A DNA stretch of 64,000 nt from NCBI RefSeq assembly GCF_044647545.1, contig NZ_CP172818.1; one strand, 5' to 3'. Below the pieces are notes generated by a model. It saw only the letters and a program-made list of their open reading frames with translations. It was not told the origin of the DNA and made no database searches. This DNA is from Escherichia coli (GTDB taxonomy: Bacteria > Pseudomonadota > Gammaproteobacteria > Enterobacterales > Enterobacteriaceae). The position numbers and the translations under genes are program-made. Positions 6,763 to 55,963 of this stretch are shown here, in pieces; the stretch's first letter is position 1, and the number at the start of each line of letters is the position of its first letter.

Positions 6763-6767
6763 GACAA

Positions 6768-8085: not shown

Positions 8086-8097
8086 CACGCTACCGCC
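8086..8097 (-). promoter_or_regulatory. ops element (RfaH recruitment site) within the JUMPstart sequence of the wza leader
   Basis: + strand cacgctaccgcc is the reverse complement of ops GGCGGTAGCGTG; lies about 180 nt upstream of the wza start codon on the transcribed strand. Confidence 0.75.
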
Positions 8098-8345: not shown

Positions 8346-8359
8346 TAGGAGTTTCTTTA
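8346..8359 (-). promoter_or_regulatory. Candidate RcsAB box of the cps (wza) promoter (weak match)
   Basis: taggagtttcttta partly resembles the reverse complement of the RcsAB box consensus TaAGaatatTCctA; position is plausible but the match is poor. Confidence 0.25.
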
Positions 8360-8565
8360 GGTTGACAATATTTAATATAGTGTCTCCATATGAGATATTT
8401 CTTAAATAACGCTTTATTATTACCGCTTATAATTCGGGGATAATGTGAGGTTATAAACCTCAAATAATATGAGATAAATAGTGCTGCAACATTGCATTTT
8501 TGCCCCGATTTATCCATGATCGAATTGTGACATTTGTCATACAACGAATAGGTTTTGTACTTACT

Positions 8566-10149: not shown

Positions 10150-10348
10150 TGGTATCAGTCATTTTACCCGATAGCCGAAAGGAATAAGATGAGGGAACCG
10201 CGCCAGCGGCGATTTACCGCCGGGAACCCGGGTTGCCAGGGTGGTGGCGATTGAGCCACCCTGGCACGTTCACCGGCTTAAGCGTTCCATAGTAGCGAGG
10301 AACATCAAGTGAACGGAACAGCCTTCGATCTTACATATTCAGAATATA

Positions 10349-10531
10349 ATGGTGCCGCCCGCTCGCGATGCTGATGGGATCTATCACGTCATGTATGTCG
10401 CAAAATTTGAAGAAGCGGTTTACGTATTGCATTGTTTTCAAAAAAAAACACAAACTACCAGTCAATCGGAAATTGATTTAGCCAAACGACGCTATAAAAA
10501 ACTTGTTCAGGAGGGGAAAAATAAAAATTAA
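10349..10531 (+). pseudogene. C-terminal remnant of a RelE/ParE-superfamily (HigB/Gp49-like) toxin
   Basis: 60-aa ORF ...GIYHVMYVAKFEEAVYVLHCFQKKTQTTSQSEIDLAKRRYKKLVQE carries the YVLHxFQKK motif of this toxin family; a stop lies immediately upstream in frame and no intact N-terminus or antitoxin is present. Confidence 0.45.
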
Positions 10532-10800
10532 AACCTTTGATAGTGGGTGGGATACGGTGAAGGACCCCCCTGAAGGAGGGGAAAAATTGGGGTTCGCGCC
10601 GGGTTGTAAAGAATAATTAAAAATGGAATGGAAAAAAAAGGGTTAGACCGGGTCGGAGAAATTTTCTTTTGGGGGGGTCACACACCCCCGTATTTTAAAT
10701 TCGACAAGGGGAAATCTCAATTTTTTATATATAAATAAATATAATATTATGGGCGCATATGGAGGTTCATATAATAAATATAAAAAATTAAAATACACAT
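10532..10800. repeat. Low-complexity, homopolymer-rich block (probable sequence artifact or insertion)
   Basis: Runs such as gaaggacccccctgaaggaggggaaaaattgggg, tttgggggggtcacacacccccg and AT-only stretches; composition unlike flanking E. coli DNA; no coding or RNA signature. Confidence 0.6.
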
Positions 10801-10820
10801 AGGCTTTATAGTAATAAAAA

Positions 10821-24318: not shown

Positions 24319-25566
24319 ATGAAAGGCAGTTATAAATCCCGTTGGGTAATCGTAATCGTGGTGGTTATCGCCGCCATCGCCGCATTCTGGTTCTGGCAAG
24401 GCCGCAATGACTCCCGGAGTGCAGCCCCAGGGGCGACGAAACAAGCGCAGCAATCGCCAGCGGGTAGTCGCCGTGGTATGCGTGCCGGTCCATTAGCCCC
24501 GGTTCAGGCAGCGACCGCCGTAGAACAAGCTGTGCCACGTTATCTCACCGGGCTTGGCACCATTACCGCCGCTAATACTGTTACGGTGCGCAGCCGCGTG
24601 GACGGTCAACTGATGGCGTTGCATTTCCAGGAAGGCCAGCAGGTCAAAGCAGGCGATTTACTGGCAGAAATTGACCCCAGCCAGTTCAAAGTTGCATTAG
24701 CACAAGCCCAGGGCCAACTGGCAAAAGATAAAGCCACGCTTGCCAACGCCCGCCGTGATCTGGCGCGTTATCAACAACTGGTAAAAACCAATCTCGTATC
24801 TCGTCAGGAGCTGGATGCCCAACAGGCGCTGGTCAGTGAAACCGAAGGCACCATTAAGGCTGATGAAGCAAGCGTCGCCAGCGCACAGCTGCAACTCGAC
24901 TGGAGCCGCATCACCGCACCAGTCGATGGTCGCGTTGGTCTCAAGCAGGTTGATGTTGGTAACCAAATCTCCAGTGGTGATACCACCGGGATTGTGGTGA
25001 TCACCCAGACGCATCCTATCGATTTGCTCTTTACCCTGCCGGAAAGCGATATCGCTACCGTAGTACAGGCGCAAAAAACCGGAAAACCGCTGGTTGTTGA
25101 AGCCTGGGATCGCACCAACTCGAAGAAATTAAGTGAAGGCACGCTGTTAAGTCTCGATAACCAAATCGATGCCACTACCGGTACGATTAAAGTGAAAGCA
25201 CGCTTTAATAATCAGGATGATGCGCTGTTTCCCAATCAGTTTGTTAACGCGCGTATGTTAGTCGACACCGAACAAAACGCCGTGGTGATCCCCACCGCCG
25301 CCCTGCAAATGGGCAATGAAGGCCATTTTGTCTGGGTGCTGAATAGCGAAAACAAGGTCAGCAAACATCTGGTGACGCCGGGCATTCAGGACAGTCAGAA
25401 AGTGGTGATCCGCGCAGGTATTTCTGCGGGCGATCGCGTGGTGACGGATGGCATTGATCGCCTGACCGAAGGGGCGAAAGTGGAAGTAGTGGAAGCCCAG
25501 AGCGCCACCACTTCGGAAGAGAAAGCCACCAGCCGCGAATACGCGAAAAAAGGAGCACGCTCCTGA
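24319..25566 (+). CDS. mdtA: Multidrug efflux periplasmic adaptor (membrane fusion protein) MdtA
   Basis: ORF 24172..25566; start taken at [26 protein letters not shown] (ATG 24319), 415 aa; stop overlaps the mdtB start (TGATG). Confidence 0.9.
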
Positions 25567-35813: not shown

Positions 35814-36044
35814 TGACGATGCCGGGCGTGGGTTGTTGGCGTCCGGCTTTATATCAAAACAACTCTTATTTATTGATAATTAAGATTAACCTCCGCCATT
35901 AAAATATGGGCACTGACGAGCACTCGTTTCTTTCTTTTTTACCATCCCATACTTATCTTCCTGAATATGTTCATATGCCAAAATATCTTCTAATACTTTC
36001 GACCTACCGGTTTATGAAATACACTGATGAAGATTTTTACTTAC

Positions 36045-36545
<501 letters not shown>

Positions 36546-36653
36546 AGCTAAACCCGCCGATTGCGCTACAATGCCCGCCCTTAAAGTGGGGGCACTCCCC
36601 TAACCGCTTCATCAGGTGAAGCGGATCTGACCTGTCATCAGAACGAGAGAATT

Positions 36654-38015
36654 ATGTTTAAACCGGAACTCCTTTCCCCGGCGGGAACGCTGAAAAATAT
36701 GCGTTACGCTTTCGCTTATGGCGCAGATGCTGTTTATGCGGGCCAGCCGCGTTACTCCCTGCGTGTGCGCAACAACGAATTCAACCACGAAAATCTTCAG
36801 CTCGGCATCAATGAAGCCCACGCGCTGGGGAAAAAGTTTTATGTCGTGGTCAACATTGCACCGCACAACGCCAAGCTGAAAACCTTTATCCGTGACCTGA
36901 AACCGGTGGTGGAGATGGGGCCGGATGCGCTGATTATGTCCGATCCAGGGCTGATTATGCTGGTGCGCGAGCACTTCCCTGAAATGCCGATCCACCTCTC
37001 GGTGCAGGCTAACGCCGTGAACTGGGCGACGGTGAAATTCTGGCAGCAAATGGGACTGACCCGCGTGATCCTCTCTCGCGAGCTGTCGCTGGAAGAGATT
37101 GAAGAGATCCGTAATCAGGTGCCGGATATGGAGATCGAGATCTTCGTTCACGGTGCGCTGTGCATGGCCTACTCCGGTCGCTGCCTGCTCTCTGGCTATA
37201 TCAACAAGCGCGACCCGAACCAGGGCACCTGCACCAACGCCTGCCGCTGGGAGTACAACGTCCAGGAAGGGAAAGAAGATGACGTTGGCAACATCGTGCA
37301 CAAGTACGAGCCGATTCCGGTGCAAAATGTTGAGCCGACGCTGGGCATCGGCGCGCCAACCGACAAAGTGTTTATGATCGAAGAAGCTCAGCGTCCGGGC
37401 GAGTATATGACTGCGTTTGAAGATGAGCACGGCACTTACATCATGAACTCGAAAGATCTGCGCGCTATCGCCCACGTTGAACGCCTGACCAAAATGGGCG
37501 TGCATTCGCTGAAAATCGAAGGTCGTACAAAATCTTTCTACTATTGCGCACGCACCGCGCAGGTTTACCGTAAAGCTATCGATGACGCAGCTGCGGGAAA
37601 ACCATTCGATACCAGCCTGCTGGAAACTCTGGAAGGTCTGGCGCATCGTGGCTATACCGAAGGTTTCCTGCGTCGTCATACTCACGACGATTATCAGAAC
37701 TACGAATACGGTTATTCAGTTTCTGACCGCCAGCAGTTTGTTGGTGAGTTTACCGGTGAGCGCAAGGGCGACCTCGCGGCGGTAGCGGTGAAAAATAAAT
37801 TCTCCGTTGGCGACAGCCTTGAGCTGATGACGCCGCAAGGGAACATTAACTTTACCCTTGAGCATATGGAAAACGCCAAAGGCGAAGCAATGCCGGTCGC
37901 ACCGGGCGATGGTTATACTGTGTGGATCCCGGTCCCGCAGGATCTTGAGCTAAATTACGCGCTGCTGATGCGTAATTTCTCCGGGGAAACCACGCGTAAC
38001 CCCCACGGTAAGTGA
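36654..38015 (+). CDS. yegQ: Peptidase U32-family protein YegQ (TrhP-type tRNA modification enzyme family)
   Basis: 453-aa ORF MFKPELLSPAGTLKNMRYAFAYGADAVYAGQPRYSLRVRNNEF... with U32-family core and conserved Cys cluster. Confidence 0.9.
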   Translation: MFKPELLSPAGTLKNMRYAFAYGADAVYAGQPRYSLRVRNNEFNHENLQLGINEAHALGKKFYVVVNIAPHNAKLKTFIRDLKPVVEMGPDALIMSDPGLIMLVREHFPEMPIHLSVQANAVNWATVKFWQQMGLTRVILSRELSLEEIEEIRNQVPDMEIEIFVHGALCMAYSGRCLLSGYINKRDPNQGTCTNACRWEYNVQEGKEDDVGNIVHKYEPIPVQNVEPTLGIGAPTDKVFMIEEAQRPGEYMTAFEDEHGTYIMNSKDLRAIAHVERLTKMGVHSLKIEGRTKSFYYCARTAQVYRKAIDDAAAGKPFDTSLLETLEGLAHRGYTEGFLRRHTHDDYQNYEYGYSVSDRQQFVGEFTGERKGDLAAVAVKNKFSVGDSLELMTPQGNINFTLEHMENAKGEAMPVAPGDGYTVWIPVPQDLELNYALLMRNFSGETTRNPHGK

Positions 38016-38099
38016 TTAATTTCGATTATTTTTCCCGGATGGAAAATTCTTAGAAACCGATCACATACAGCTGCATTTATTAAGGTTATCATCCGTTTC

Positions 38100-38190
38100 G
38101 CTGAAAAACATAACCCATAAAATGCTAGCTGTACCAGGAACCACCTCCTTAGCCTGTGTAATCTCCCTTACACACACGGGCTTATTTTTT
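38100..38190 (+). ncRNA. cyaR: CyaR (RyeE) Hfq-dependent sRNA
   Basis: gctgaaaaacataacccataaaatgctagctgtaccaggaaccacctccttagcctgtgtaatctccc...gggcttatttttt matches CyaR as I recall it, including the terminator hairpin and U-tail. Confidence 0.8.
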
Positions 38191-38348
38191 ATGCATAAGC
38201 CCTATCTCTGGTAACCGTCTTCCATTGACCACATCGATAGAATCCTCCTTCATAGCACGATGCCTTTCACTTATCGGCATCGTGCTCCCACAGGTTCCGG
38301 CTACGCACAGCCAGAACGCGCATGTTTGACGCTTACCAAAAAATATTC

Positions 38349-38666
38349 TCACTCTCCACATTTGAATGTCAGACGAGCGACGCCATGTAATCCTGCACCT
38401 TCTGTCTTCAGGTCAACTATCTGCATTTTTTTTCCCTGAGTAACACAGAAATGAGCTGCATCATTTTTTACTATATTTTCTGCACCAGAAATTCTGCCCC
38501 TGGCTAAAGAAGCTTCGGCTTCGGTGTAGTATTGGTTATCGAGTTTACGCTGAATATTACTTTTATATGCAAGGCCAAATTTACCGATACTTGTCTCATC
38601 ATTATGCACAGCACAACCAGACATAAGAAAAACACTAATTAATGATATAGCAGCTATCTTTTTCAT
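38349..38666 (-). CDS. yegR: Small secreted/lipoprotein-like protein YegR
   Basis: ORF 38349..38726; start at MKKIAAISLISVFLMSGCAVHNDE (signal peptide with lipobox), 105 aa; ATG confirmed at 38664-38666. Confidence 0.8.
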   Translation of the reverse strand: MKKIAAISLISVFLMSGCAVHNDETSIGKFGLAYKSNIQRKLDNQYYTEAEASLARGRISGAENIVKNDAAHFCVTQGKKMQIVDLKTEGAGLHGVARLTFKCGE

Positions 38667-39080
38667 CTTACCTTCCCCCATTAAATACCAACGACACGCT
38701 CTGGTGTTTAAATATAATAATGGCATGATTATTATATTTGAATAGGATTATAATAAATGTTCTGTACAACATTTCCTACATAAGTAGGAATTACAGACAC
38801 GGATGCCCTTCCGGGTAACCCCATGGGGGGGTTAATATATTTTTAATAGTATATTGAAGATGCCACTGTTTAGTTGAATATTAGGTATATGCTCTTTTTT
38901 GAAATTTATCGGTGGCTGCCGTTAGTATTCGCTGTCCCCATTGCAAGCTCCTGGTGGTAACCACTGAATCTTCCATACTTGAACTGACTTTTTATCCTCC
39001 GACTTTCATCCTGTTCTGACTCTACCTTTTCTTTTCTGCTCTACACTATCTACAGACCAATCATAAAGGCACATACGATC

Positions 39081-39980
39081 ATGGCAGAATTTCCCGCCAG
39101 CTTACTGATTCTTAATGGCAAAAGTACTGACAATCTACCCCTGCGCGAAGCAATTATGCTGTTGCGTGAGGAAGGAATGACGATCCATGTGCGGGTCACC
39201 TGGGAGAAAGGCGATGCCGCACGATATGTAGAGGAGGCCCGGAAGTTGGGCGTCGCAACGGTGATTGCCGGTGGTGGCGATGGCACCATTAATGAAGTTT
39301 CTACGGCGTTGATTCAGTGTGAGGGGGATGACATACCCGTGCTGGGAATTTTGCCATTAGGAACCGCCAATGATTTTGCCACCAGTGTAGGGATTCCTGA
39401 GGCACTGGATAAGGCGCTGAAACTGGCAATTGCCGGTAACGCCATTGCGATAGATATAGCGCAGGTCAACAAACAAACCTGTTTTATTAATATGGCGACA
39501 GGCGGATTTGGGACGCGTATTACCACAGAAACGCCGGAAAAATTAAAAGCCGCGCTGGGTGGCGTCTCTTACATCATTCATGGCTTAATGCGCATGGATA
39601 CTCTGCAACCGGACCGTTGTGAAATCCGCGGTGAAAACTTTCACTGGCAAGGTGACGCCCTGGTCATTGGTATTGGTAACGGGCGTCAGGCCGGTGGCGG
39701 TCAACAATTGTGCCCGAACGCGTTAATTAACGATGGCTTGCTGCAACTGCGCATTTTTACCGGCGATGAAATTCTTCCGGCTCTCGTATCAACCTTAAAA
39801 TCTGACGAAGATAACCCGAATATTATCGAAGGCGCTTCGTCGTGGTTTGATATACAAGCCCCACACGAAATCACTTTTAATCTTGATGGCGAACCGTTGA
39901 GCGGACAAAACTTTCATATTGAAATACTTCCGGCGGCGTTGCGTTGTCGATTACCACCGGATTGTCCATTATTGCGTTAA
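39081..39980 (+). CDS. yegS: Lipid kinase YegS (diacylglycerol kinase catalytic-domain family)
   Basis: 299-aa ORF with DAGK_cat GGDGT motif ([13 protein letters not shown]). Confidence 0.9.
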
Positions 39981-40018
39981 TCAAACTATTCTCTCTTGAA
40001 CCAGGGAAAATCCGTAAT

Positions 40019-40052
40019 GCCGGATGCGGTGTAAACAACTTATCCGGCATAC
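40019..40052. repeat. REP-like element between yegS and gatR
   Basis: gccggatgcggtgtaaacaacttatccggcatac resembles the REP consensus. Confidence 0.5.
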
Positions 40053-40061
40053 AGAACAATA

Positions 40062-40841
40062 CTACACCGTAATTAATTTCACTCGTGTCTTCTGCAATGC
40101 CAGTTTATCCACCTCTGACACAGCATCGTCGGTAATAATAATGTCAATTTTTTCGATTGGCAGTACCTGATTAAAACCGCGACGATTAAATTTCGATGAA
40201 TCGAGAACGGCAATCACTTTATTTGCGGCTGTGACCATCGCCCCGCTAATCGAATAGCCTTCATTAAAGGTCGTAATACCATTAACCGCATCAATACCAT
40301 CAGCACCGACAAACATTAAATCGGCATTAATATCCTGCAATGAACGCTCAGCAATGGAGCCATGCATCGAGCGCGTTTTATGGCGGACCGTGCCACCGCA
40401 GACGACCAGAGTAATGTCTTTATTTTCGGAAAGGGCAAATGCTGCCGGGAGACTGTTGGTAATCACCGTGATATTTTTGGCGGTCATTAATCCTTCGGCG
40501 ATAAGCATTGTCGTACTTCCGCTGTCGAGAATAACGGTCATCCCTTCGTGGATCATTTTGACTGCCGCCTGCGCTATTCTGTTTTTTGGCGCGCTGGCGA
40601 GCTGAAATCGCTCTTTAAACCCGACTTCCTGGGTCTCGGTTTCACTATTACCGGACATTATTTTCGCCGCACCGCCATGAAAGCGCGTAACCACGCCTTT
40701 TTGTTCGAGAAAGCGCAAATCGGCACGGATTGTCGCTTCCGAGGCAGCAAATACTCCCGCCAGATCCTGAACAAGCACGGTTCCCTGTTCATTCACTAAT
40801 TGGATGATCTTATTCCTTCGCTCGAATGAATTCATCGTCAT
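40062..40841 (-). CDS. gatR: DeoR-family galactitol operon repressor GatR (uninterrupted)
   Basis: 259-aa continuous ORF; N-terminal DeoR HTH (RRNKIIQLVNEQGTVLVQDLAGVFAASEATIRADLRFLEQKG), C-terminal sugar-phosphate-binding domain. Confidence 0.85.
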   Translation of the reverse strand: MTMNSFERRNKIIQLVNEQGTVLVQDLAGVFAASEATIRADLRFLEQKGVVTRFHGGAAKIMSGNSETETQEVGFKERFQLASAPKNRIAQAAVKMIHEGMTVILDSGSTTMLIAEGLMTAKNITVITNSLPAAFALSENKDITLVVCGGTVRHKTRSMHGSIAERSLQDINADLMFVGADGIDAVNGITTFNEGYSISGAMVTAANKVIAVLDSSKFNRRGFNQVLPIEKIDIIITDDAVSEVDKLALQKTRVKLITV

Positions 40842-40940
40842 TTACCCATATTCAATTGTGGCTAGTGTAAACGAAGGGGGACCATTGGTGAATGATCTGT
40901 TTTGCACAATACCGGGCCAGCATCACGCTGGCCCGCGGTT

Positions 40941-41981
40941 TCAGGGAATGAGCAACACTTTGCCCGGCATAGCATTACGAGCGATGTCACGCACCGCCTG
41001 GGCGAAGCTTTCAAAGCTTCCACGGTGAGCGATTAATGGCTCCAGGCTTAACTTACGTTCTGTCAGCAACCGGCTCGCCGTTTCCCACTCCTGCCCCGGC
41101 CAAGGGCTGGAGTAGTTCATCCAACTGCCGATAACCGTCAGCTCTTTACGCAATATTTTGCCAAACGTTGCCGATGTTAAATGCAGATCCTGATGCAACG
41201 TGCCCACCAGCGCCAGCTGGGCATGAGGCCCGGCAATCTCTACCGCCAGTTCGACGGTTTGCGGGACGCCAGCCGTCTCGAGGATAAGCTGATTAAAGCG
41301 CAGCTCGCGTAAAACGCCCTGCATTTGCGGCGCGCTCATTTCAAGGCTGTTAAATGTTTGCATCGCACCGAAAGATTTTGCCAGTGCCAGTTTTTCTGAG
41401 CTAATGTCGATAGCCGTCACACTCTTTGCTCCCAGCGCGACAGCGCACTGAATGGCCAGCAGGCCAATGGTTCCGGCACCAATAATAATAACGTTTTTAT
41501 TCTCACAACCTTGCGCTAAATGAAAAGCATGCAGGCCAACGGTAATCGGTTCAATAAAAGCCCCTTCCTCAATAGGCATATCCGCAGGTAGAGCAAAGAC
41601 ATTTTTCCGCTTAACGACAATATATTCGGCAACCCCACCATCACGCCGTGAGCCAATAAAATCATATTTTGCGCACTGGGAATAAAACCCTTTCAGACAC
41701 TCTGGACAAGTAAAACAGGGTAATAACGGCACACAGGCAACCGCATCGCCAGGATGTAAATCATCAACACCGGATCCCACCGCATCAATATAGCCGCTAA
41801 ATTCATGGCCTAACGTTATTGGATAATAATGTGCACCATTTTTAAATATCCTGGGTAAATCGGAACCACATACGCCCGAGCTGGCAATTTTTACCCGCAC
41901 CTCATCCTGATGATTAATTTCAGGAATGACTCGTTCTTCAACGCGCACGATACCATCAGTATCATTCACCACTGATTTCAT
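40941..41981 (-). CDS. gatD: Galactitol-1-phosphate 5-dehydrogenase (Zn-dependent MDR family)
   Basis: 346-aa ORF with Zn-ligand Cys/His pattern (GVCGSDL, GHEFSG) and Rossmann GxGxxG (IIGAGTIG). Confidence 0.9.
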   Translation of the reverse strand: MKSVVNDTDGIVRVEERVIPEINHQDEVRVKIASSGVCGSDLPRIFKNGAHYYPITLGHEFSGYIDAVGSGVDDLHPGDAVACVPLLPCFTCPECLKGFYSQCAKYDFIGSRRDGGVAEYIVVKRKNVFALPADMPIEEGAFIEPITVGLHAFHLAQGCENKNVIIIGAGTIGLLAIQCAVALGAKSVTAIDISSEKLALAKSFGAMQTFNSLEMSAPQMQGVLRELRFNQLILETAGVPQTVELAVEIAGPHAQLALVGTLHQDLHLTSATFGKILRKELTVIGSWMNYSSPWPGQEWETASRLLTERKLSLEPLIAHRGSFESFAQAVRDIARNAMPGKVLLIP

Positions 41982-42029
41982 AAAAACTCCTGATTGGTTA
42001 AGGGGGATATTCTCCCCCTCAGGTAAAAA

Positions 42030-43385
42030 TTATTCTGCGAGAACGGCTTTCTCTTGTTTGGTAAAGCCGCGCGCTCTACGCCAGGTCATGAAAATACCGG
42101 TGAGATAAATGACGCCGATAATAATGAAACCGGGAATATTTTGCGGGGAGAAAACCTGAATCAGTAACCAGGTAATAGGAGAACCGCCCTGATCCATTGA
42201 AGCCACCATACCCCCGGCTTTTAACGCCCCAGCATTAGCCGCCAGTTGGGTGTGCAAACCAATAGTTTGCGTCGCGATCCACAGGGTGATGCTCATAATG
42301 ATGACACCCGAGATTAAGGTGCGGAACAGATTTCCACGATGCACCGCGACCGCCATCGCCACGAAGAAGCCGATAGTTGCAAGATCGCCAAACGGCAGCA
42401 CCTGATTACCCGGAACACAAACAGCAATTAAAATGGTGAGAGGGATAAAAATCAGGCTTGCCGATACCACCGCCGTATGCCCCAGCAACAACGCCGGATC
42501 AAGGCCAATCAGGAACTCCTGACCGCCGAACTTCGCCTGTAAACGACTACGGGCCTGCTTAGCGATGGGCGTTAAACCATCCATGATAGGTTTAATCACC
42601 CGTGGCATCAGCAGCATAACTGCCGCCGTTTTTACCGCCAGCTGCAATACACCTTTGACATCGTAACCCGCAAGGATGCCGATAATCAGCCCCATCACAA
42701 AACCCACGGTGACCGGTTCGCCAAAAGGGCCAAATTTGCGCTGAATATCATCGGCGCTAAATTTAATTCGGTTAACGCCTGGGATTTTCTCGATGATAGC
42801 ATCGACCAGCACCGCAATCGGCCCCATATACGCCGACGTACCGTGCGGAATAGCAATGCCTTCCAGCTCAAAGAAATTTCGGGTATCGCGGGCAAACCAG
42901 TCGCCGAGCTTATAAACAAACGCCGCGTGAATTACCACACCCGCCATCCCTATCATCCATGAACCGGTTGCCAGATGCAGCAACGCGCCGGTGAAGGTCA
43001 TATGCCAGATATTCCAGATATCAACATTTACCACCCGCGTCATACGGGTCAGTAACATCGCCACGTTAACCAGAATCGCAATCGGAATCGCCACCAGCGC
43101 AATTTGCGACGCCCAGGTCATGGGTGAAGAGCCCGGCCAGCCGACATCGACCACATGCAGATTCAGGTCGAAATTTTCCGCCATCGCTTTCGCCGCCGGA
43201 CCAATGGAATCCAGCATTAAGCCAATCACAAGGCCAATGCCAACAAAGCCAATCCCGATATGCAGACCCGCTTTAAAGCAATCGCCTGCCTTCATGCCTA
43301 ATATTTTAGAAAAAATAATGATGACAATCGGCAGCATCACCGTAGGGCCGAGGTCGAGAATATAACGCATGACTTCTGAAAACAT
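42030..43385 (-). CDS. gatC: PTS galactitol-specific EIIC component
   Basis: 451-aa polytopic membrane ORF. Confidence 0.9.
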   Translation of the reverse strand: MFSEVMRYILDLGPTVMLPIVIIIFSKILGMKAGDCFKAGLHIGIGFVGIGLVIGLMLDSIGPAAKAMAENFDLNLHVVDVGWPGSSPMTWASQIALVAIPIAILVNVAMLLTRMTRVVNVDIWNIWHMTFTGALLHLATGSWMIGMAGVVIHAAFVYKLGDWFARDTRNFFELEGIAIPHGTSAYMGPIAVLVDAIIEKIPGVNRIKFSADDIQRKFGPFGEPVTVGFVMGLIIGILAGYDVKGVLQLAVKTAAVMLLMPRVIKPIMDGLTPIAKQARSRLQAKFGGQEFLIGLDPALLLGHTAVVSASLIFIPLTILIAVCVPGNQVLPFGDLATIGFFVAMAVAVHRGNLFRTLISGVIIMSITLWIATQTIGLHTQLAANAGALKAGGMVASMDQGGSPITWLLIQVFSPQNIPGFIIIGVIYLTGIFMTWRRARGFTKQEKAVLAE

Positions 43386-43388
43386 AGG

Positions 43389-43673
43389 TCACCCCTGTAA
43401 GATAGTCAGAATTTTATTTTGTAATGCTTCGATACCGACACCAGAAACAAAAGGCATGCCGTGAACTAACGGAATATTGCCAAAACTACGATCCACCCTG
43501 GCAGTGGTGCATATCAAATGCACGCCATCCATATAGGTTTCTATTTCATTAACCCGACACTGGATTAATTCAACCGGAATATTATGACTCTGACACAACT
43601 CTTTAATTTCTTCCGCCGCCATCGTAGAGGTCGCAACCGCACCTCCGCAAGCGACAATAATTTTGCGTTTCAT
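43389..43673 (-). CDS. gatB: PTS galactitol-specific EIIB component
   Basis: 94-aa [33 protein letters not shown]... with the active-site Cys near the N-terminus. Confidence 0.9.
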
Positions 43674-43703
43674 AAATAGTCCTTTTCATTGTTACAGAGG
43701 GAT

Positions 43704-44156
43704 TTATTCGTCTGAATCTAAAACATACTTTGTGAAGTATTCCTTTAACTGGGTTTCAGGAAGAGTGATTAGTGTCTCGACGATATAGGGCTGTTGTAAC
43801 TTGCCAAATAAACAGCGTAAAAGTTTCAATTGCTGCTGCGGATTTTCCACAATCAACGCAATAACCAACGATACCGCCACGTCGTTATCATCATCCGCTT
43901 GCTGAAAATGAACTTTATTTGTTGGCCTTAACAGATAAATGGCTGACGACTTAGCATGAATCGCCTCACAATGCGGTATTGCAATGGCGTGCTGCTCAAG
44001 CATTATCCCGGTAGGGAATTCTGCTTCTCTGGCAATTAATGCCTGTGGCCAGGTATCATGAACCACACCTTTCGCGAGCATCTCATTACCGATATGGGTT
44101 AAAACTTCGCTACGATCGACAAAAGAAATTCCGCTACGAACAAACAGGTTAGTCAT
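43704..44156 (-). CDS. gatA: PTS galactitol-specific EIIA component
   Basis: 150-aa ORF, EIIA(Ntr/Mtl-like) fold with active-site His (IAIPHC). Confidence 0.9.
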   Translation of the reverse strand: MTNLFVRSGISFVDRSEVLTHIGNEMLAKGVVHDTWPQALIAREAEFPTGIMLEQHAIAIPHCEAIHAKSSAIYLLRPTNKVHFQQADDDNDVAVSLVIALIVENPQQQLKLLRCLFGKLQQPYIVETLITLPETQLKEYFTKYVLDSDE

Positions 44157-44165
44157 ATATCGTCC

Positions 44166-46365
<2,200 letters not shown>

Positions 46366-46425
46366 TCAAATGTCGAGATAACGATCACAAAAACGACAAT
46401 GTGAAAATTAATCAGAATGACAGGC

Positions 46426-46453
46426 AAAAAAAACGGCCTCCCGGGGAAGCCGT
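46426..46453 (-). terminator. Rho-independent terminator downstream of fbaB
   Basis: Minus-strand hairpin cggcttccccgggaggccg followed by T8 (+ strand aaaaaaaa at 46426-46433). Confidence 0.55.
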
Positions 46454-46536
46454 AACGAAGTGCGCGTGTTTTTATGCCGGATGCAACGTAAACGCCTTTT
46501 CTGTCCTACGGGGTGGTGCTGTTCATATGAGGCGCA

Positions 46537-47589
46537 TCAGGCGATAGTAATTTTGCTATCGAGATAAACGTCCTGTACGGCGTTAATCAGTTTCACGCCG
46601 TCAGCCATCGATTTCTTGAAGGCCTTACGTCCAAGAATCAGCCCCATTCCGCCTGCGCGTTTGTTGATAACCGCAGTACGCACTGCATCGCTGAGGTCAG
46701 TTTCACCGCCTGCAGCACCGCCGGAGTTTATCAACCCGGCCCGGCCCATATAGCAGTTAGCTAACTGATAACGCACCAGGTCAATCGGGTTTTCACTGGT
46801 CAGTTTGCTGTAGACTCGATCGTCGGTATAACCGTAATTAATCGCTTTATAGCCGCCGTTATTTTCCGCCATTTTTTGTTTGACGATATCTGCACCTATG
46901 GTTGCCGCCAGATGGTTCGCCTGACCAGTCAGGTCGGCGGAAACATGGTAATCAACGCCATCTTTCTTAAAGGCGGAGTTACGCAAATAGGCCCACAGCA
47001 CTGTCACCATGCCCAGCTCGTGCGCACGTTCAAAAGCCGCAGAAATTTCTTCAATCTGGCGACGTGACTCTTCCGAGCCAAAATAGATAGTCGCCCCAAC
47101 CGCCACCGCGCCCATATTGAACGCCTGCTCCACGCTGGCATACAGCGTTTGATCGTAGGTATTCGGGTAACTTAGCGTCTCGTTGTGATTAAGTTTGACG
47201 AGGAATGGAATGCGATGCGCGTAACGCCGCGATACCGATGCCAGCACGCCGTAAGTTGACGCCACACAGTTACAGCCCGCTTCGATCGCCAGTTCAACAA
47301 TGTTTTTCGGGTCAAAGTAGAGCGGGTTAGCGGCAAATGAAGCTCCGGCAGAATGCTCAACGCCCTGGTCAACCGGCAGAATAGAAAGATATCCTGTGCC
47401 AGCCAGACGCCCGGTGTTGTACAACGTCTGCATATTACGTAACACCGCTGGCGGGCGATTATTGTCAATCATCACGCGGTCTACGTAGTCATGTCCGGGG
47501 AGATAAAGCTGGTCAGAAGGAATAGTCATACAACGGTGCTGTAAAAGGTTGTCGGCGTCTTTGCCAAGCAACTGCGCAATATCTGTCAT
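46537..47589 (-). CDS. fbaB: Fructose-bisphosphate aldolase class I
   Basis: ORF 46537..47661; start at [24 protein letters not shown] (ATG 47587-47589), 350 aa. Confidence 0.9.
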
Positions 47590-47845
47590 TACTATGCTCC
47601 CGTAAATTCCGATTGGATATCGGCTATGGATTGTCCTGGCCCGCCTTTTGCGGGCAATCATAATCCTGGTCGTTACGGGCGAGTTTTTCCATCTTTTGGA
47701 TGTTTTTTCAGCGTTTTCTGTTGGCTCGATTCATCAGAAAAAATGTTACCGCGGTCAAGTTTTCACCGCAAAGGTATTTGAAAGGTATTATTAAGTGGTA
47801 TTGTCATCGCGTACCTTACATTACCTGTCATGAAGGAATTAAAAG

Positions 47846-49123
47846 ATGAAAACAACAGCAAAGCTGTCGTTCATGATGTTTGTTGAATGGTTTATCTGGG
47901 GCGCGTGGTTTGTGCCATTGTGGTTGTGGTTAAGTAAAAGCGGTTTTAGTGCCGGAGAAATTGGCTGGTCGTATGCCTGTACCGCCATTGCGGCGATCCT
48001 GTCGCCGATTCTGGTTGGCTCCATCACTGACCGCTTTTTCTCGGCACAGAAAGTGCTGGCGGTATTGATGTTCGCTGGTGCGGTGCTGATGTATTTCGCC
48101 GCGCAACAGACCACTTTTGCCGGGTTCTTCCCGTTACTGCTGGCCTACTCGCTAACCTATATGCCGACCATTGCGCTGACTAACAGTATCGCTTTTGCCA
48201 ACGTGCCGGATGTGGAGCGTGATTTCCCACGCATTCGTGTGATGGGGACTATCGGCTGGATTGCCTCTGGTCTGGCATGTGGATTCTTGCCGCAAATGCT
48301 GGGTTATGCCGATATCTCACCGACGAACATCCCGCTGCTGATTACTGCCGGAAGTTCTGCTCTGCTTGGTGTGTTTGCGTTTTTTCTGCCCGACACGCCA
48401 CCAAAAAGCACCGGCAAAATGGATATTAAAGTCATGCTCGGCCTGGATGCGCTGATCCTGCTGCGCGATAAGAACTTCCTCGTATTTTTCTTCTGTTCAT
48501 TCCTGTTTGCGATGCCACTGGCGTTCTATTACATCTTTGCCAACGGTTATCTGACCGAAGTTGGCATGAAAAACGCCACTGGCTGGATGACGCTCGGCCA
48601 GTTCTCTGAAATCTTCTTTATGCTGGCATTGCCGTTTTTCACTAAACGCTTTGGTATCAAAAAGGTATTGTTGCTTGGTCTAGTCACCGCTGCGATCCGC
48701 TATGGCTTCTTTATTTACGGTAGTGCGGATGAATATTTCACCTACGCGTTACTGTTCCTCGGTATTTTGCTGCACGGCGTAAGTTACGATTTTTACTACG
48801 TTACCGCTTACATCTATGTCGATAAAAAAGCTCCCGTGCATATGCGTACCGCCGCGCAGGGGCTGATCACGCTCTGCTGCCAGGGCTTCGGCAGTTTGCT
48901 CGGCTATCGTCTTGGCGGTGTGATGATGGAAAAGATGTTCGCTTATCAGGAACCGGTAAACGGACTGACTTTCAACTGGGCCGGGATGTGGACTTTCGGC
49001 GCGGTGATGATTGCCATTATCGCCGTGCTGTTCATGATTTTTTTCCGCGAATCCGACAACGAAATTACGGCTATCAAGGTCGATGATCGCGATATTGCGT
49101 TGACACAAGGGGAAGTTAAATGA
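47846..49123 (+). CDS. yegT: MFS nucleoside:H+ symporter-family transporter YegT
   Basis: 425-aa polytopic membrane ORF resembling NupG/XapB-type transporters. Confidence 0.85.
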   Translation: MKTTAKLSFMMFVEWFIWGAWFVPLWLWLSKSGFSAGEIGWSYACTAIAAILSPILVGSITDRFFSAQKVLAVLMFAGAVLMYFAAQQTTFAGFFPLLLAYSLTYMPTIALTNSIAFANVPDVERDFPRIRVMGTIGWIASGLACGFLPQMLGYADISPTNIPLLITAGSSALLGVFAFFLPDTPPKSTGKMDIKVMLGLDALILLRDKNFLVFFFCSFLFAMPLAFYYIFANGYLTEVGMKNATGWMTLGQFSEIFFMLALPFFTKRFGIKKVLLLGLVTAAIRYGFFIYGSADEYFTYALLFLGILLHGVSYDFYYVTAYIYVDKKAPVHMRTAAQGLITLCCQGFGSLLGYRLGGVMMEKMFAYQEPVNGLTFNWAGMWTFGAVMIAIIAVLFMIFFRESDNEITAIKVDDRDIALTQGEVK

Positions 49124-50124
49124 AAACAGAACGTATTCTCGGTGCTCTTTATGGGCAGGCGTTAGGGGATGCGATGGGGATGCCCTCCGAGCTTTGGCCA
49201 CGCAGCCGCGTTAAAGCACACTTTGGCTGGATTGATCATTTTCTGCCTGGACCAAAGGAGAATAACGCGGCCTGTTATTTTAACCGCGCCGAATTCACCG
49301 ACGATACCTCGATGGCGCTGTGTCTGGCGGATGCGTTACTGGAACGTAAAGGCAAGATCGATCCGGATCTGATTGGGCGTAATATTCTCGACTGGGCGCT
49401 GCGTTTCGACGCCTTTAACAAAAACGTACTAGGTCCGACCTCGAAGATTGCGCTTAACGCCATTCGCGACGGTAAACCCGTTGCTGAACTGGAAAATAAC
49501 GGCGTGACCAACGGCGCAGCGATGCGCGTCTCGCCATTAGGTTGTTTGCTTCCGGCGCACGATATTGACTCTTTTATTGATGATGTGGCGCTGGCCTCCA
49601 GCCCGACACATAAATCCGATCTGGCGGTTGCGGGGGCGGTAGTCATCGCATGGGCGATTTCTCGTGCCATTGACGGAGAAAGCTGGTCAGCGATTGTTGA
49701 TTCACTGCCTTCAATTGCGCGACATGCTCAACAAAAACGCATCACTACCTTCAGCGCCTCACTGGCAGCACGTCTGGAGATTGCGCTGAAAATTGTGCGC
49801 AATGCCGATGGCACCGAATCCGCCAGCGAACAGCTTTACCAGGTCGTTGGCGCAGGTACCAGCACTATTGAGTCCGTTCCGTGCGCCATTGCGCTGGTTG
49901 AACTGGCACAAACCGACCCGAACCGTTGCGCCGTCCTGTGCGCTAACCTTGGCGGCGACACAGACACCATCGGTGCTATGGCGACGGCAATTTGTGGCGC
50001 GTTGCATGGCGTTAACGCTATCGATCCTGCGTTAAAGGCGGAACTGGATGCAGTAAATCAGCTTGATTTCAACCGCTATGCCACGGCGCTGGCGAAGTAT
50101 CGCCAACAACGGGAGGCGATATGA
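49120..50124 (+). CDS. yegU: ADP-ribosylglycohydrolase-family protein YegU
   Basis: 334-aa ORF (MKTERILGALYGQALGDAMGMPSELW...DDTSM...) typical of the ADP-ribosylglycohydrolase fold; 4-bp overlap with yegT. Confidence 0.85.
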   Translation: MKTERILGALYGQALGDAMGMPSELWPRSRVKAHFGWIDHFLPGPKENNAACYFNRAEFTDDTSMALCLADALLERKGKIDPDLIGRNILDWALRFDAFNKNVLGPTSKIALNAIRDGKPVAELENNGVTNGAAMRVSPLGCLLPAHDIDSFIDDVALASSPTHKSDLAVAGAVVIAWAISRAIDGESWSAIVDSLPSIARHAQQKRITTFSASLAARLEIALKIVRNADGTESASEQLYQVVGAGTSTIESVPCAIALVELAQTDPNRCAVLCANLGGDTDTIGAMATAICGALHGVNAIDPALKAELDAVNQLDFNRYATALAKYRQQREAI

Positions 50125-51086
50125 GCGGCGCTCGATTACACACGCTGCTGCCTGAATTAGCCACGCGTCAGCCGGTGATGGTCGTCGGCGCGGCGGTCAT
50201 TGATGTGATCGCCGACGCTTATGCCCTCCCCTGGCGTGGGTGCGATATCGAACTGAAACAGCAGAGCGTTAACGTTGGCGGCTGTGCACTGAATATTGCC
50301 GTGGCATTAAAGCGCCTCGGCATCGAAGCGGGTAATGCCTTGCCGCTCGGTCAGGGGGTGTGGGCGGAGATTATTCGCAACCGGATGGCAAAAGAGGACT
50401 TAATCAGCCTGATCGATAACGCCGAAGGTGATAACGGCTGGTGTCTGGCGCTGGTTGAGCCGGATGGCGAACGCACTTTTATGTCATTCAGCGGTGTGGA
50501 AAATCAGTGGAATCGCCAGTGGCTGGCGCGATTAACCGTTGCGCCTGGCAGCCTGCTCTATTTTTCCGGTTATCAACTGGCCTCGCCCTGCGGCGAATTG
50601 TTAGTGGAATGGCTGGAAGAGCTGCAAGACGTGACGCCATTTATCGATTTTGGCCCACGTATTGGCGATATCCCGGATGCATTACTGGCGCGGATCATGG
50701 CCTGTCGACCTTTAGTGTCACTCAATCGTCAGGAGGCTGAGATTGCCGCCGAACGTTTTGCTTTATCCGCAGAGATAACAACACTAGGCAAGCAATGGCA
50801 GGAGAAATTTGCTGCGCCGTTGATCGTTCGTCTCGATAAAGAGGGCGCATGGTATTTCAGCAACGACGCTTCTGGCTGCATTCCGGCATTTCCAACGCAA
50901 GTTGTAGACACCATTGGGGCGGGCGACAGTCATGCCGGCGGCGTACTTGCCGGGCTGGCCTCTGGTCTGCCACTGGCGGATGCCGTATTACTGGGCAATG
51001 CAGTGGCGTCGTGGGTTGTCGGGCATCGGGGCGGTGATTGTGCGCCAACGCGCGAGGAACTACTCCTCGCACACAAAAACGTATAG
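50121..51086 (+). CDS. yegV: PfkB-family carbohydrate/nucleoside kinase YegV
   Basis: 321-aa ORF with ribokinase-like motifs (DTIGAGDSHAGGVLAGL near the C-terminus); 4-bp overlap with yegU. Confidence 0.85.
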   Translation: MSGARLHTLLPELATRQPVMVVGAAVIDVIADAYALPWRGCDIELKQQSVNVGGCALNIAVALKRLGIEAGNALPLGQGVWAEIIRNRMAKEDLISLIDNAEGDNGWCLALVEPDGERTFMSFSGVENQWNRQWLARLTVAPGSLLYFSGYQLASPCGELLVEWLEELQDVTPFIDFGPRIGDIPDALLARIMACRPLVSLNRQEAEIAAERFALSAEITTLGKQWQEKFAAPLIVRLDKEGAWYFSNDASGCIPAFPTQVVDTIGAGDSHAGGVLAGLASGLPLADAVLLGNAVASWVVGHRGGDCAPTREELLLAHKNV

Positions 51087-51806
51087 ATCGCTGCGACAGT
51101 GGCTGATGCTGTACTCAATAGGCCGTTGCTGTTGGTCAAGCGCCACTTGCTTGATCACCAGCACCGGTACTTTGCTATCTAACTGAATATGTGACTGAAA
51201 CTCGGCATCCGGCATCCGGGCGCTAACGCGGGAACGCGTACGTTGTGGGTAAATGTGCTGGCTGCGGAAGTAGTCATAAAGAGAAATTCCGATGGCATCA
51301 ACATCATGAATTAAATGCGCCGGAACCCACGATTCCTCAATCGATACCGCTTCTTCATCGACATAGCGAATACGCTTAAGCAAAAAGACATCACTTCCCG
51401 CTTCGACCGCCAGCTGCTGCGCAACTTCTTCGGGACATTTCACGACACGCTTGTTAACCCATAGCGTATCGGGCTTTTTCCCGCGCAATACCACCTGCTG
51501 AGAAAAACCTCGCGCTTCTTTCAACGAGTATTCGAAGATGTTGTTGATCTGCGTACCGTAACCACGCGAACGCGTCACCACGCCCTCTTCTTCCAGCGCC
51601 TGCATCGCCTTGCGCACCGTAATGCGCGAAACGCCGGTTAACTGACTTAAATCACGCTCACCGGGCAAAATATTGCCATGCTCCAGCACCCCGCTGCGCA
51701 CGGCATTTTTTACCGTTTCGGCAAACTTAATATAAAGCGGCGTGTTATCCGCCGCTAAAATACGTTCGTTCAGTTGGGCAATCAGCTGGGTATGCGCTTG
51801 TTCCAT
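51060..51806 (-). CDS. yegW: GntR/HutC-family transcriptional regulator YegW
   Basis: 248-aa ORF with N-terminal GntR HTH (LPGERDLSQLTGVSRITVRKAMQALEEEGVV) and UTRA-type C-terminus; 27-bp convergent overlap with yegV. Confidence 0.85.
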   Translation of the reverse strand: MEQAHTQLIAQLNERILAADNTPLYIKFAETVKNAVRSGVLEHGNILPGERDLSQLTGVSRITVRKAMQALEEEGVVTRSRGYGTQINNIFEYSLKEARGFSQQVVLRGKKPDTLWVNKRVVKCPEEVAQQLAVEAGSDVFLLKRIRYVDEEAVSIEESWVPAHLIHDVDAIGISLYDYFRSQHIYPQRTRSRVSARMPDAEFQSHIQLDSKVPVLVIKQVALDQQQRPIEYSISHCRSDLYVFVCEE

Positions 51807-51857
51807 TTGTCTTTTTCCTGCCGGGGAGTCTGGTGGGAGTATATCACTGCTTCTTAT

Positions 51858-52685
51858 TTAAGGCGTTTCTTTAATCCCATCAACGAATCCCTGCAACTCC
51901 TCCTCTGTGCCATTAAACACATTAAAATCCACCGGACCATTAATGCCATCTACCTGCCCACGGTCGGAATGCTGCCAGAAGCGCCAGGCCATGCCGTCAT
52001 TGTCCGGACGACGTTGATAGTAGTGAGCCACCCACCACGGATATTCATTGAAATAGCCCGCCAGATTCGTGTGATAAAAAACGGCTCCTGAGTAAATAAT
52101 CGGCTTTTTCCCCGTACTTTTTTCGACCATTTTTAGCCACTGACTTACCCGCTTGCGTAATTCTTTTGCCGATAATTTTCCCCGTTCTTCTACGTCCAGC
52201 ACGGCAGGGAAATCGCCTTGTGAGAAATCCACCGTTTGCAGAAATAATCTCGCCTGAACTGAAGCGGATACCGACGGGGAAAAATAATGATACGCCCCGC
52301 GCAGCAGGCCATTTTCGCGGCTTAGTTGCCAGTTACGCGAAAAATAGGGGTCCACCAGCTTTTCGCCTTCCGTCGCCTTAATAAAAGCAAACTGTAAGCG
52401 GATACCGTTGTCGCGCATTTTTGCCACCCGCTGCCAGTCGATCCGCTCCTGCCAGCGCGAAACATCTATTCCGTGAATGGTGTAACTGGCAGGAATGCGA
52501 ATAGCAAAAGATTTGACTGGACGATAACCGTAGAAGTGGATGTAGTCTTTAATCTGAATTGCTGTCGAGTAGAAAAAATTCACCGTCTGACGCGGATAAA
52601 TTGCAACGATGGAAATTAGCCCAAGAGCGCATAATAAAGCGGTGAATTTTTTTCGACTGGTGATTCTCAGCTGCATTGGTTTCAT
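51858..52685 (-). CDS. yegX: Glycoside hydrolase family 25 (lysozyme-like) protein YegX
   Basis: 275-aa ORF with N-terminal membrane anchor and GH25 core (HGIDVSRWQERIDWQRV...FIKATEG). Confidence 0.85.
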   Translation of the reverse strand: MKPMQLRITSRKKFTALLCALGLISIVAIYPRQTVNFFYSTAIQIKDYIHFYGYRPVKSFAIRIPASYTIHGIDVSRWQERIDWQRVAKMRDNGIRLQFAFIKATEGEKLVDPYFSRNWQLSRENGLLRGAYHYFSPSVSASVQARLFLQTVDFSQGDFPAVLDVEERGKLSAKELRKRVSQWLKMVEKSTGKKPIIYSGAVFYHTNLAGYFNEYPWWVAHYYQRRPDNDGMAWRFWQHSDRGQVDGINGPVDFNVFNGTEEELQGFVDGIKETP

Positions 52686-52740
52686 CCCTGAATGTCAGCG
52701 CCAAAGGCTGACAATAACCAAAGCAGCTATAGTACGGTGC

Positions 52741-53541
52741 TCACCACCAGGCGTGGAAGTGGTGAACCGGACCAATACCGTGACCAACTTCCAGCGTGTC
52801 GGCCTGGGCTAACGCCGATGAAAGCCAGCTTTTTGCCTCCTGTACGGTGTCAGCCCAGTTTGTATGGCGCGGGCGCAGTGCAGCCAACGCCGCAGAGAGC
52901 GTACAACCAGTGCCGTGAGTGTTTTTGGTCATAATGCGCGGTGCGGTAAACCGTTGTTCCCCCTCACGAGTAAACAGCCAGTCCGGGCTTTGCCCATCAT
53001 CCAGATGACCACCTTTCATTAGCACTGCGCCACAGCCCATCGCCAACAGCGATCGCCCTTGTTCCAGCATTTCCTGTTCGGTGCGCGCGTGTGGCGCGTC
53101 GAGCAAGGCGGCTGCTTCGGGCAAGTTTGGCGTTATTAATGAAACCTGTGGCAATAATCGACTGCGCAGCGTAGCAACCGCCGAAGGTGAAAGCAGCGGG
53201 TCGCCGCTTTTTGCCAGCATAACGGTGTCGAGTACCACGTTTTGGATCTGATAACGTTGCAACCGTTCTGCCACCGCTTCAACAATATCGGTTTCCGCCA
53301 ACATACCGATTTTAGTGGTGTCGATTCGCACATCACTGAACACCGAATCGAGCTGGGCGGCGACAAAATCAGGCTCAATGCGATACACCGACTGTACGCC
53401 ACGGGTATTTTGCGCCACCAGTGCAGTAATAACTGAGCAACCATAAGCGCCAAGTGCCGAGAAGGTTTTAAGATCGGCCTGAATCCCCGCACCACCACTC
53501 GGATCAGTACCGGCAATCGTCAGAGCGTTAATTCGTTTCAT
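52741..53541 (-). CDS. thiD: Hydroxymethylpyrimidine/phosphomethylpyrimidine kinase
   Basis: 266-aa [37 protein letters not shown]...; 4-bp overlap with thiM. Confidence 0.9.
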
Positions 53542-54326
53542 GCCTGCACCTCCTGCGTCAATTGCCAGAGCGCATCAAGGAAATGTGGAACAAAACTGCC
53601 TGGCCCCTCGCTTCTGGCAACTGCGCGTTCTCCGGCTTGTTTCATCCAGTGACAGGCAGATGCGATATTTTCCAACGTATCGCCTGGTAGCGCACAACAG
53701 GCAGCGACAACCGCCGATAATGCACAGCCAGTTCCTACCACTTTGGTCATTAGCGGATCGCCACCGTGAATGCCAACGATACGATGTCCATCGGTAACAT
53801 AATCCACCTCGCCAGTGACCACGACGATTGCGCCAGTTTCCCGTGCCAGTGTTTGTGCAGCAGGTATCGCGTTAGCTGCGGCATCAGTGGTATCCACTCC
53901 CCGTCCGCCATTAGCAACGCCAGCTAATGCCATGATTTCCGAAGCATTACCACGTATGGCGGTTGGCTTATGAGACAGAAGTTCCAGACAAAAACGGCGG
54001 CGATAATCGAGTGCACCCACCGCTACTGGATCAAGCGTCCAGGGTGTTTGAGAGCGTTTTGCCTGTTCAACGGCGGCACGCATCGCCTGTGCGCGTGGCT
54101 GCGTCAGCGTGCCAACGTTAATCAGCAACGCACTGGCGATTGCCGCAAACTGACTGGCCTCTTCGGTTTCGATGACCATCGCTGGCGATGCACCGAGCGC
54201 CAGTAAGGTATTGGCAGTAAAGGTTTGCACCACATCATTGGTCATACAGTGCACAAGGGGGGAATGTTTGTGAAAAAGATGTAACGCGTGCGCAGATTGC
54301 GCGGAACTCAGCAGGTCGACTTGCAT
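53538..54326 (-). CDS. thiM: Hydroxyethylthiazole kinase
   Basis: 262-aa [42 protein letters not shown]... Confidence 0.9.
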
Positions 54327-54334
54327 AGTTTGCT

Positions 54335-54470
54335 CCTGCCATAACGTGAAGAAGCAATGACCTGGTGGTCCGTGACTTCCCTACGCTGGCATTATCCAGA
54401 TCAGGTGATACGGGTATTTCTCAGCCTTCACGCAGAAGGGCACCCCGAGTCGTTTGGTTGCGATAATAAA
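54335..54470 (-). promoter_or_regulatory. TPP (thi-box) riboswitch in the thiM leader
   Basis: + strand 54374-54446 is the reverse complement of GGGGTGCCCTTCTGCGTGAAGGCTGAGAAATACCCGTATCACCTGATCTGGATAATGCCAGCGTAGGGAAGTC, the thiM aptamer with its CUGAGA element. Confidence 0.8.
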
Positions 54471-54548
54471 TCGCAGAGGAGGATGGTAATGTCCAGCGCA
54501 CGCGTTGTAAACGGGGAAAAACGGCGGTATTACAATAACGTTGTGAAA

Positions 54549-54821
54549 TTATTTGATATAAGAATCCAGCACCTTCAGAACGACATCCAGATCTTCTTCA
54601 CGTTTTAGCTCATCCCCCTGGTGAACGATGTGTTCCGTCAGATGGCCTTTAATCACTTCCCGCATCAGACCGTTTACCGCGCCACGGATAGCAGCAATCT
54701 GTTGTAAAACTGCAGCGCATTCGTGCGGCTCGTCGAGCATTTTCTTGAGCGCCACGACCTGGCCCTGAATCTTACTGGCACGCGCTTTCAGTTTCTGTTT
54801 ATCACGGATGGTATGAGACAT
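54549..54821 (-). CDS. rcnR: Ni/Co-responsive transcriptional repressor RcnR (CsoR/RcnR family)
   Basis: 90-aa [55 protein letters not shown]... Confidence 0.9.
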
Positions 54822-54869
54822 GGCAACACCTGGTTAACAAGAATATGAAAAATCATAGCACTATTAATC

Positions 54870-54904
54870 TACTGGGGGGTAGTATCAGGTACTGGGGGGG
54901 AGTA
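54870..54904. promoter_or_regulatory. Two RcnR operator sites (TACT-G6-N-AGTA) in the rcnR-rcnA intergenic region
   Basis: tactggggggtagta at 54870-54884 and tactgggggggagta at 54890-54904. Confidence 0.7.
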
Positions 54905-54941
54905 GAATCAGATTGCCGAATTAATACTAAGAATTATTATC

Positions 54942-55745
54942 ATGACCGAATTTACCACTCTTCTTCAGCAAGGAAATGCCTGGTTCTTCATCCCCAGCGC
55001 CATCTTACTTGGTGCGCTTCATGGCCTGGAACCAGGGCACTCAAAAACGATGATGGCGGCGTTTATCATCGCCATCAAAGGCACCATTAAACAGGCGGTG
55101 ATGCTCGGACTGGCAGCAACCATTTCGCATACCGCGGTGGTCTGGTTGATTGCCTTTGGCGGGATGGTAATCAGCAAACGTTTTACTGCTCAATCTGCAG
55201 AACCGTGGCTCCAGTTGATTTCCGCGGTGATCATTATTGGCACCGCGTTCTGGATGTTCTGGCGTACCTGGCGCGGCGAACGCAACTGGCTGGAGAATAT
55301 GCACGAGCACGAGCACGAGCACGAGCATGATCATGAGCATCATCACCATCACGAACATGGCGAGTATCAGGATGCCCATGCACGAGCCCATTCCAATGAC
55401 ATTAAAAGACGATTTGATGGTAGAGAGGTCACCAACTGGCAAATTTTGTTATTTGGCTTAACCGGTGGCCTTATCCCCTGCCCGGCAGCAATTACCGTGC
55501 TGTTGATTTGCATTCAGTTGAAAGCCCTGACACTGGGCGCAACACTGGTCGTCAGTTTTAGCATTGGCCTGGCGTTAACGCTTGTCACCGTAGGCGTTGG
55601 CGCAGCAATCAGCGTTCAGCAGGTCGCAAAACGCTGGAGCGGATTTAACACTCTCGCTAAACGCGCCCCCTATTTTTCCAGTCTGTTGATTGGCTTAGTT
55701 GGTGTGTATATGGGCGTACATGGCTTCATGGGCATAATGCGATAA
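54942..55745 (+). CDS. rcnA: Nickel/cobalt efflux protein RcnA
   Basis: 267-aa membrane ORF with His-rich cytoplasmic loop (HEHEHEHEHDHEHHHHHEHGEY). Confidence 0.9.
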   Translation: MTEFTTLLQQGNAWFFIPSAILLGALHGLEPGHSKTMMAAFIIAIKGTIKQAVMLGLAATISHTAVVWLIAFGGMVISKRFTAQSAEPWLQLISAVIIIGTAFWMFWRTWRGERNWLENMHEHEHEHEHDHEHHHHHEHGEYQDAHARAHSNDIKRRFDGREVTNWQILLFGLTGGLIPCPAAITVLLICIQLKALTLGATLVVSFSIGLALTLVTVGVGAAISVQQVAKRWSGFNTLAKRAPYFSSLLIGLVGVYMGVHGFMGIMR

Positions 55746-55963
55746 CTCAATCCTTTAGGCTTGCATGTTATCTTCAGCCCAGGATGATTCTTAAATCAGC
55801 TATTTCCGCTGACTCTCTGCTCGCTAAGGATGCTTTTAGAGCATCCTTTCATTTACACTTTTTACGAAATCATGGGATCACTAACAAAATATCGCTTGTC
55901 AGTTATATTGTATGGCAGGAAAGATATGCGACTGATATTACAGATCCCCAAAGTGGAGAGTTT

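Follow-up and report, generated by a model that had tools for sequence, protein, structure and literature searches.

The yegQ-gatR region is, with high confidence, an ordinary and undamaged yegQ-cyaR-yegR-yegS-gatR segment of a non-K-12 Escherichia coli strain nearly identical to JBEHAAB-19-0176, with an empty P2 site and a complete GatR. No observation speaks against this reading. The window, which is the whole stretch of DNA analysed, comprises 64,000 nucleotides of contig NZ_CP172818.1 (assembly GCF_044647545.1). An empty P2 site and an intact gatR are already documented and ordinary, and the finding matters little beyond the bookkeeping entry that the window is not K-12. Any novelty is confined to an ACAC duplication of uncertain reality within the cyaR terminator. 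The features are listed in Table 1.

Table 1. Features of the cyaR-gatY region, in window positions
Feature	Position	Strand	Basis and remarks
cyaR (ryeE)	38098-38187	+	Rfam RF00112, full-length model match
Unoccupied attB core of P2-like phages	38160-38191	+	Overlaps the cyaR terminator; 32 nt here, 28 nt in the wild-type form
ACAC, 4-bp tandem duplication	38174-38177 (ambiguous within 38170-38177)	+	Descending (3') arm of the terminator, middle of the attB core
Single copy of a 25-bp sequence	38174-38198	+	Two copies flank ogrK-D' in K-12; the blastn alignments overlap here
Perfect 11-bp inverted repeat, 11-nt spacer	38254-38286		Repeat search; shared with K-12 and O157
yegR, putative lipoprotein, 105 aa	38349-38666	-	ORF from an ATG that gives MKKIAAISLISVFLMSGC (lipoprotein-type signal)
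yegS, lipid kinase, 299 aa	39081-39980	+	NCBIfam NF009602 equivalog, 491 bits against a cut-off of 284
Imperfect inverted repeat	40017-40050		Repeat search; between the convergent yegS and gatR
gatR, DeoR/GlpR-family repressor of the galactitol operon	40062-40841	-	Continuous ORF of 259 codons
GTC triplet, target of IS3 in K-12	40537-40539		Duplicated in K-12, single here; blastn breakpoints and junctions
gatD, gatC, gatB, gatA, gatZ, gatY	40941-46317	-	ORFs of 346, 451, 94, 150, 420 and 286 (284) codons

The interval between cyaR and yegR

The product of cyaR (ryeE) is a CRP-dependent, Hfq-binding small RNA. In the window, yegQ/trhP ends at 38015 and is followed by a cyaR gene that scores 86.8 bits with RF00112, against a gathering score of 47, and covers model positions 1-85 of 85. 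Like other members of the CyaR/RyeE family, it has the conserved CCACCUCC loop and the UCUCCC loop of the terminator, but it carries 4 additional nucleotides on the 3' arm of the terminator stem. Apart from this ACAC insertion, the aligned gene is the same as cyaR of K-12 and of JBEHAAB-19-0176.

The preliminary description reported a short gap after cyaR without a prophage remnant, and placed ogrK and yegZ in the same gap of K-12. Both points are borne out. About 160 bp lie between the end of cyaR, as placed by Rfam, and the end of the yegR ORF at 38349, and no ORF of phage origin is found inside. MG1655 is annotated with ogrK in this gap, together with a 'phage late control D' pseudogene that corresponds to yegZ, a truncated gene D. 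This P2 remnant measures about 0.6 kb and is bounded by a 25-bp direct repeat according to blastn, in which window 36563-38198 and 38174-40539 align to positions 1164-2795 and 3400-5757 of the MG1655 locus (L001). The alignment to MG1655, which had been proposed as a check, shows that the K-12 arrangement differs at both loci, with a remnant after cyaR and an IS3 in gatR. As the comparison is with actual genomes, chance plays no part in it. A screen of the 157-bp spacer between cyaR and yegR for a hidden gene or terminator returned the inverted repeat of Table 1 only, and this repeat has no U-tract.

The neighbouring yegR is intact in the window and interrupted by IS1 in JBEHAAB-19-0176, at a point corresponding to window 38461-38468. 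RefSeq names its product either 'protein YegR' or 'lipoprotein YegR', and an NCBIfam search of YegR gave no match. The imperfect inverted repeat between yegS and gatR looks like a candidate REP element.

The P2 attachment site

Judged from its sequence, the site after cyaR is the known attB of phage P2. The 3' end of wild-type cyaR (positions 2761-2788 of reference locus L002) is identical in 28 of 28 nucleotides to P2 24355-24382, which spans the annotated 27-nt attP (24356-24382) and the Int-binding 'attP core'. In O157:H7 FRIK2455, exactly this cyaR site is occupied by a P2-like prophage with an integrase, cox and an HTH repressor. The phage supplies its own copy of the core at the prophage junction, and cyaR is therefore rebuilt upon integration. 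This prophage and the ogrK-D' element of K-12 both lie at precisely the cyaR position. The genome paper of E. coli W lists 'cyaR RNA' as an integration site, with Wphi2 (P2) in W, ogr-D' in K-12, P2*B in B, and no occupant in Crooks (PMC3032704).

The window site has the same position between yegQ and yegR as the K-12 ogr-D' remnant, and the same core overlapping the cyaR terminator. In contrast to K-12, it is empty and has a private ACAC duplication in the core, which is longer than the wild-type form because of this insertion. The window core is thus not identical to the 27-nt attP core of P2, and consists of two 14-nt halves split by ACAC.

On this reading, the 3' end of cyaR, comprising the terminator stem and the U-tract, doubles as the chromosomal attachment site of P2-like phages. 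The site is unoccupied in the window strain, contains a decayed P2-like prophage end in K-12 (ogrK and the 3' part of gene D), and contains a whole P2-like prophage in other strains. The cyaR terminator is a textbook instance of a small-RNA gene that serves also as a phage attachment site. The sequence is compatible with an empty site that may never have been occupied or may have been restored through precise excision.

gatR and the galactitol operon

The window gatR is uninterrupted. The continuous reading frame given in the preliminary description is confirmed, as is the disruption of the K-12 gene by an insertion sequence, which is an IS3 at the GTC triplet of Table 1 with duplication of this target. 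The RefSeq start lies two codons later and gives a protein of 257 aa. In MG1655, gatR is annotated as two pseudogene pieces around the IS3 transposase.

The window GatR is the same in 257 of 257 residues as WP_001295426.1, the protein of JBEHAAB-19-0176 and of the HS stock LAM_HS. It is also identical to a K-12 GatR rebuilt in silico by deletion of IS3 and one GTC. The DeoR architecture, with an N-terminal helix-turn-helix and a C-terminal effector-binding domain, is present in full length. GatR aligns end to end (residues 3-259) with the AgaR, SrlR, and GlpR models, with all scores below the equivalog cut-offs, and is therefore a paralogue of these regulators and not one of them.

Sousa et al. 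report that the IS insertion in gatR of MG1655 makes the gat operon constitutive, and that gatR of E. coli HS in place of the MG1655 pseudogene restores gat regulation (PMC5850726). The wild-type GatR of HS has identical residues to the window protein, and its gene has the same place downstream of gatD and the same strand. K-12 gatR has the same coding sequence as the window gene, but it is split by IS3 and its gat operon is constitutive, whereas the window gene is unsplit.

The structural genes gatYZABCD are all full length in the window. Their products match those of JBEHAAB-19-0176 exactly, with GatD as the one exception: its residue 117 is V, against F in both JBEHAAB-19-0176 and K-12. This V117 is a private substitution in the galactitol-1-phosphate dehydrogenase, at window 41633. 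A single-base difference at 46447 was considered as a change in the gat promoter and rejected. It lies in the G-run of a hairpin just downstream of fbaB, and no gat control element was recognisable there.

The window GatR is identical in amino acids to the HS allele that restores regulation, and the six structural genes are full length; because of this, the earlier expectation that the gat operon of the source strain is repressed by GatR and inducible by galactitol is a sound prediction from sequence. gatR encodes a complete DeoR-type repressor, the K-12 copy of which was destroyed by IS3, making gatYZABCD constitutive there. Since the repressor gene and the six structural genes are all intact in the window, the operon should stay off until galactitol is available, with repression predicted to be relieved by galactitol or its phosphate. 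The constitutive gat phenotype of K-12 is not to be assumed for the window strain.

Strain background

The closest genome is that of JBEHAAB-19-0176, a human stool isolate from Okinawa. The window is 100% identical to it over positions 1-10172 and 99.99% identical over 38461-56467. At window 10165-10172, JBEHAAB-19-0176 contains an IS110-family element with about 1.5 kb of additional DNA, which the window does not have.

The non-K-12 origin put forward earlier is upheld. Neither of the K-12 lineage features, the ogrK-yegZ remnant and the IS3 in gatR, is found in the window. Identity across yegQ-cyaR and yegR-gatR is merely 96.7-97.6% to MG1655, compared with 99.8-100% to JBEHAAB-19-0176. An alternative origin is a K-12 derivative that lost its P2 remnant and IS3 through engineering or precise excision. 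Some laboratory strains with the K-12-like remnant do have an intact gatR, such as CY708, in which ogrK and the D' pseudogene are present and IS3 is missing. However, between yegP and yegQ the window also contains a ParD/ParE-locus insertion absent from K-12, and its GatD differs from the K-12 protein at 9 residues. This origin has a negligible probability and is rejected on the identity of about 97% to MG1655.

Frequency of the two states in E. coli

The two states were counted in 5,426 complete E. coli genomes. The empty cyaR-yegR junction, taken as a 141-nt probe covered to at least 80% in one place, is present in 4,207 genomes (78%). An intact gatR, likewise covered to at least 80% in one place, is present in 4,756 (88%). 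The K-12-specific junction from D' to yegR occurs in only 359 of the genomes, and the gatR::IS3 junction of K-12 in only 345. The genomes listed with the K-12 junctions are laboratory derivatives of K-12, for instance BW25113 and ER1709. Other broken cyaR junctions mostly hold something else, for example the P2-like prophage of O157:H7 FRIK2455.

The window arrangement is the majority state and presumably the ancestral one. The two features had been described as markers of strain background. Absence of both K-12 lesions does exclude K-12, but it indicates no particular lineage at these frequencies. Both 'markers' are the majority state of the species, and K-12 is the oddity.

The ACAC duplication in the cyaR terminator

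At the duplication, the window reads the 8-nt ACACACAC where the wild type has TTACACGGGC. Alignment shows that the duplication is missing from JBEHAAB-19-0176, K-12, and O157. A 50-nt probe across the insertion, in which every 28-mer spans the insertion and whose local control matches the window and not the wild type, matched none of the 5,426 E. coli genomes. Exact 30-nt patterns of the variant were absent from metagenome contigs and from 100,044 species-representative genomes. A control scan with the wild-type 26-nt pattern gave 11 matches, in Escherichia, Kluyvera, and Citrobacter, so the negative results for the variant are meaningful.

The wild-type terminator is predicted to form 10 base pairs with a 6-nt loop at -15.0 kcal/mol, and the window terminator 8 base pairs with a 14-nt loop at -11.3 kcal/mol. 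The window stem is shifted or bulged by ACAC; the U-tract is present, and the stem abuts it. A simple consensus scan for terminators detects the wild-type hairpin and misses that of the window. The window cyaR terminator is thus predicted by folding to be weaker than the wild type.

A duplication that is real and functional, altering the terminator and Hfq-binding module of CyaR and breaking the P2 attB core, is possible but doubtful. The location of ACAC, in the middle of the core identical to the 27-nt attP and within the 3' arm of the terminator, agrees with such an effect, as do the reduced hairpin stability and the result of the terminator scan. The 1.9 kb flanking the insertion are otherwise identical to JBEHAAB-19-0176. 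On the other hand, the variant occurs in no other sequence searched, and the same window has two corrupted stretches and several homopolymer-length differences, which make an error at ACAC plausible. Also, termination may be nearly normal, since a G+C-rich stem of 8 bp still abuts the U-tract. If the duplication is real and functional, the level or the 3' end of CyaR would be changed, and the strain would be a poor target for integration of P2-like phages at this site. The more specific proposal, in which a true mutation both inactivates the preferred P2 core and re-registers the CyaR terminator, is unlikely. If true, it would be a natural host change at an attB embedded in a small-RNA gene, altering phage integration as well as 3'-end formation and Hfq binding of the small RNA.

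The slightly favoured reading is that ACAC is an artefact of sequencing, assembly, or editing, as are the other private single differences in the window. The uniqueness of the variant to the window points to this, together with the decay of window 10360-10819 and 35907-36545 into low complexity where the closest genome has intact genes, and three homopolymers that differ by a single base, with yehB split by one of them. Against an artefact, replication slippage also typically produces clean tandem duplications of dinucleotide repeats, and the kilobases on either side of ACAC are free of errors. The duplication requires read-level confirmation before any further use.

Corrupted stretches and other private differences

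Window 35907-36545, in the yegP-yegQ spacer, begins near identity with scattered small indels, passes into low-complexity runs such as G27, A28, and A18, and returns abruptly to 100% identity. In JBEHAAB-19-0176 the corresponding interval encodes an intact toxin-antitoxin pair, ParD/ParE, and the K-12 interval is just 146 bp long. Coverage of the window spacer stays below 80% in every complete E. coli genome. The stretch has the look of an artefact or a corruption and does not seem biological.

Window 10360-10819, which likewise does not look biological, decays in a similar way, with 99 differences from JBEHAAB-19-0176 and a drift into low complexity rich in A, T, and G. It maps within a few nucleotides onto a type II toxin-antitoxin locus with an HTH antitoxin and a partial RelE/ParE toxin. 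Each of the two corrupted stretches falls on toxin-antitoxin genes and decays in the plus direction. With the homopolymer differences, which are relative to JBEHAAB-19-0176, these stretches mean that private differences in the window need read-level support.

Position 59579 of the window carries C6 against C7 in the closest genome, and this splits the yehB fimbrial usher gene into ORFs 57434-59590 and 59434-59928 on the minus strand. The result represents a frameshift pseudogene or, alternatively, a sequencing error in the homopolymer. At yehA, about 1 kb of normal-looking sequence (56468-57443) has no megablast similarity to JBEHAAB-19-0176, and probably represents a divergent yehA allele (fimbrial subunit or adhesin). 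Two further differences from JBEHAAB-19-0176 are a one-base deletion at 22022, at the overlap of pphC and yegI, and a 3-base deletion at 17734, near the 3' end of alkA.
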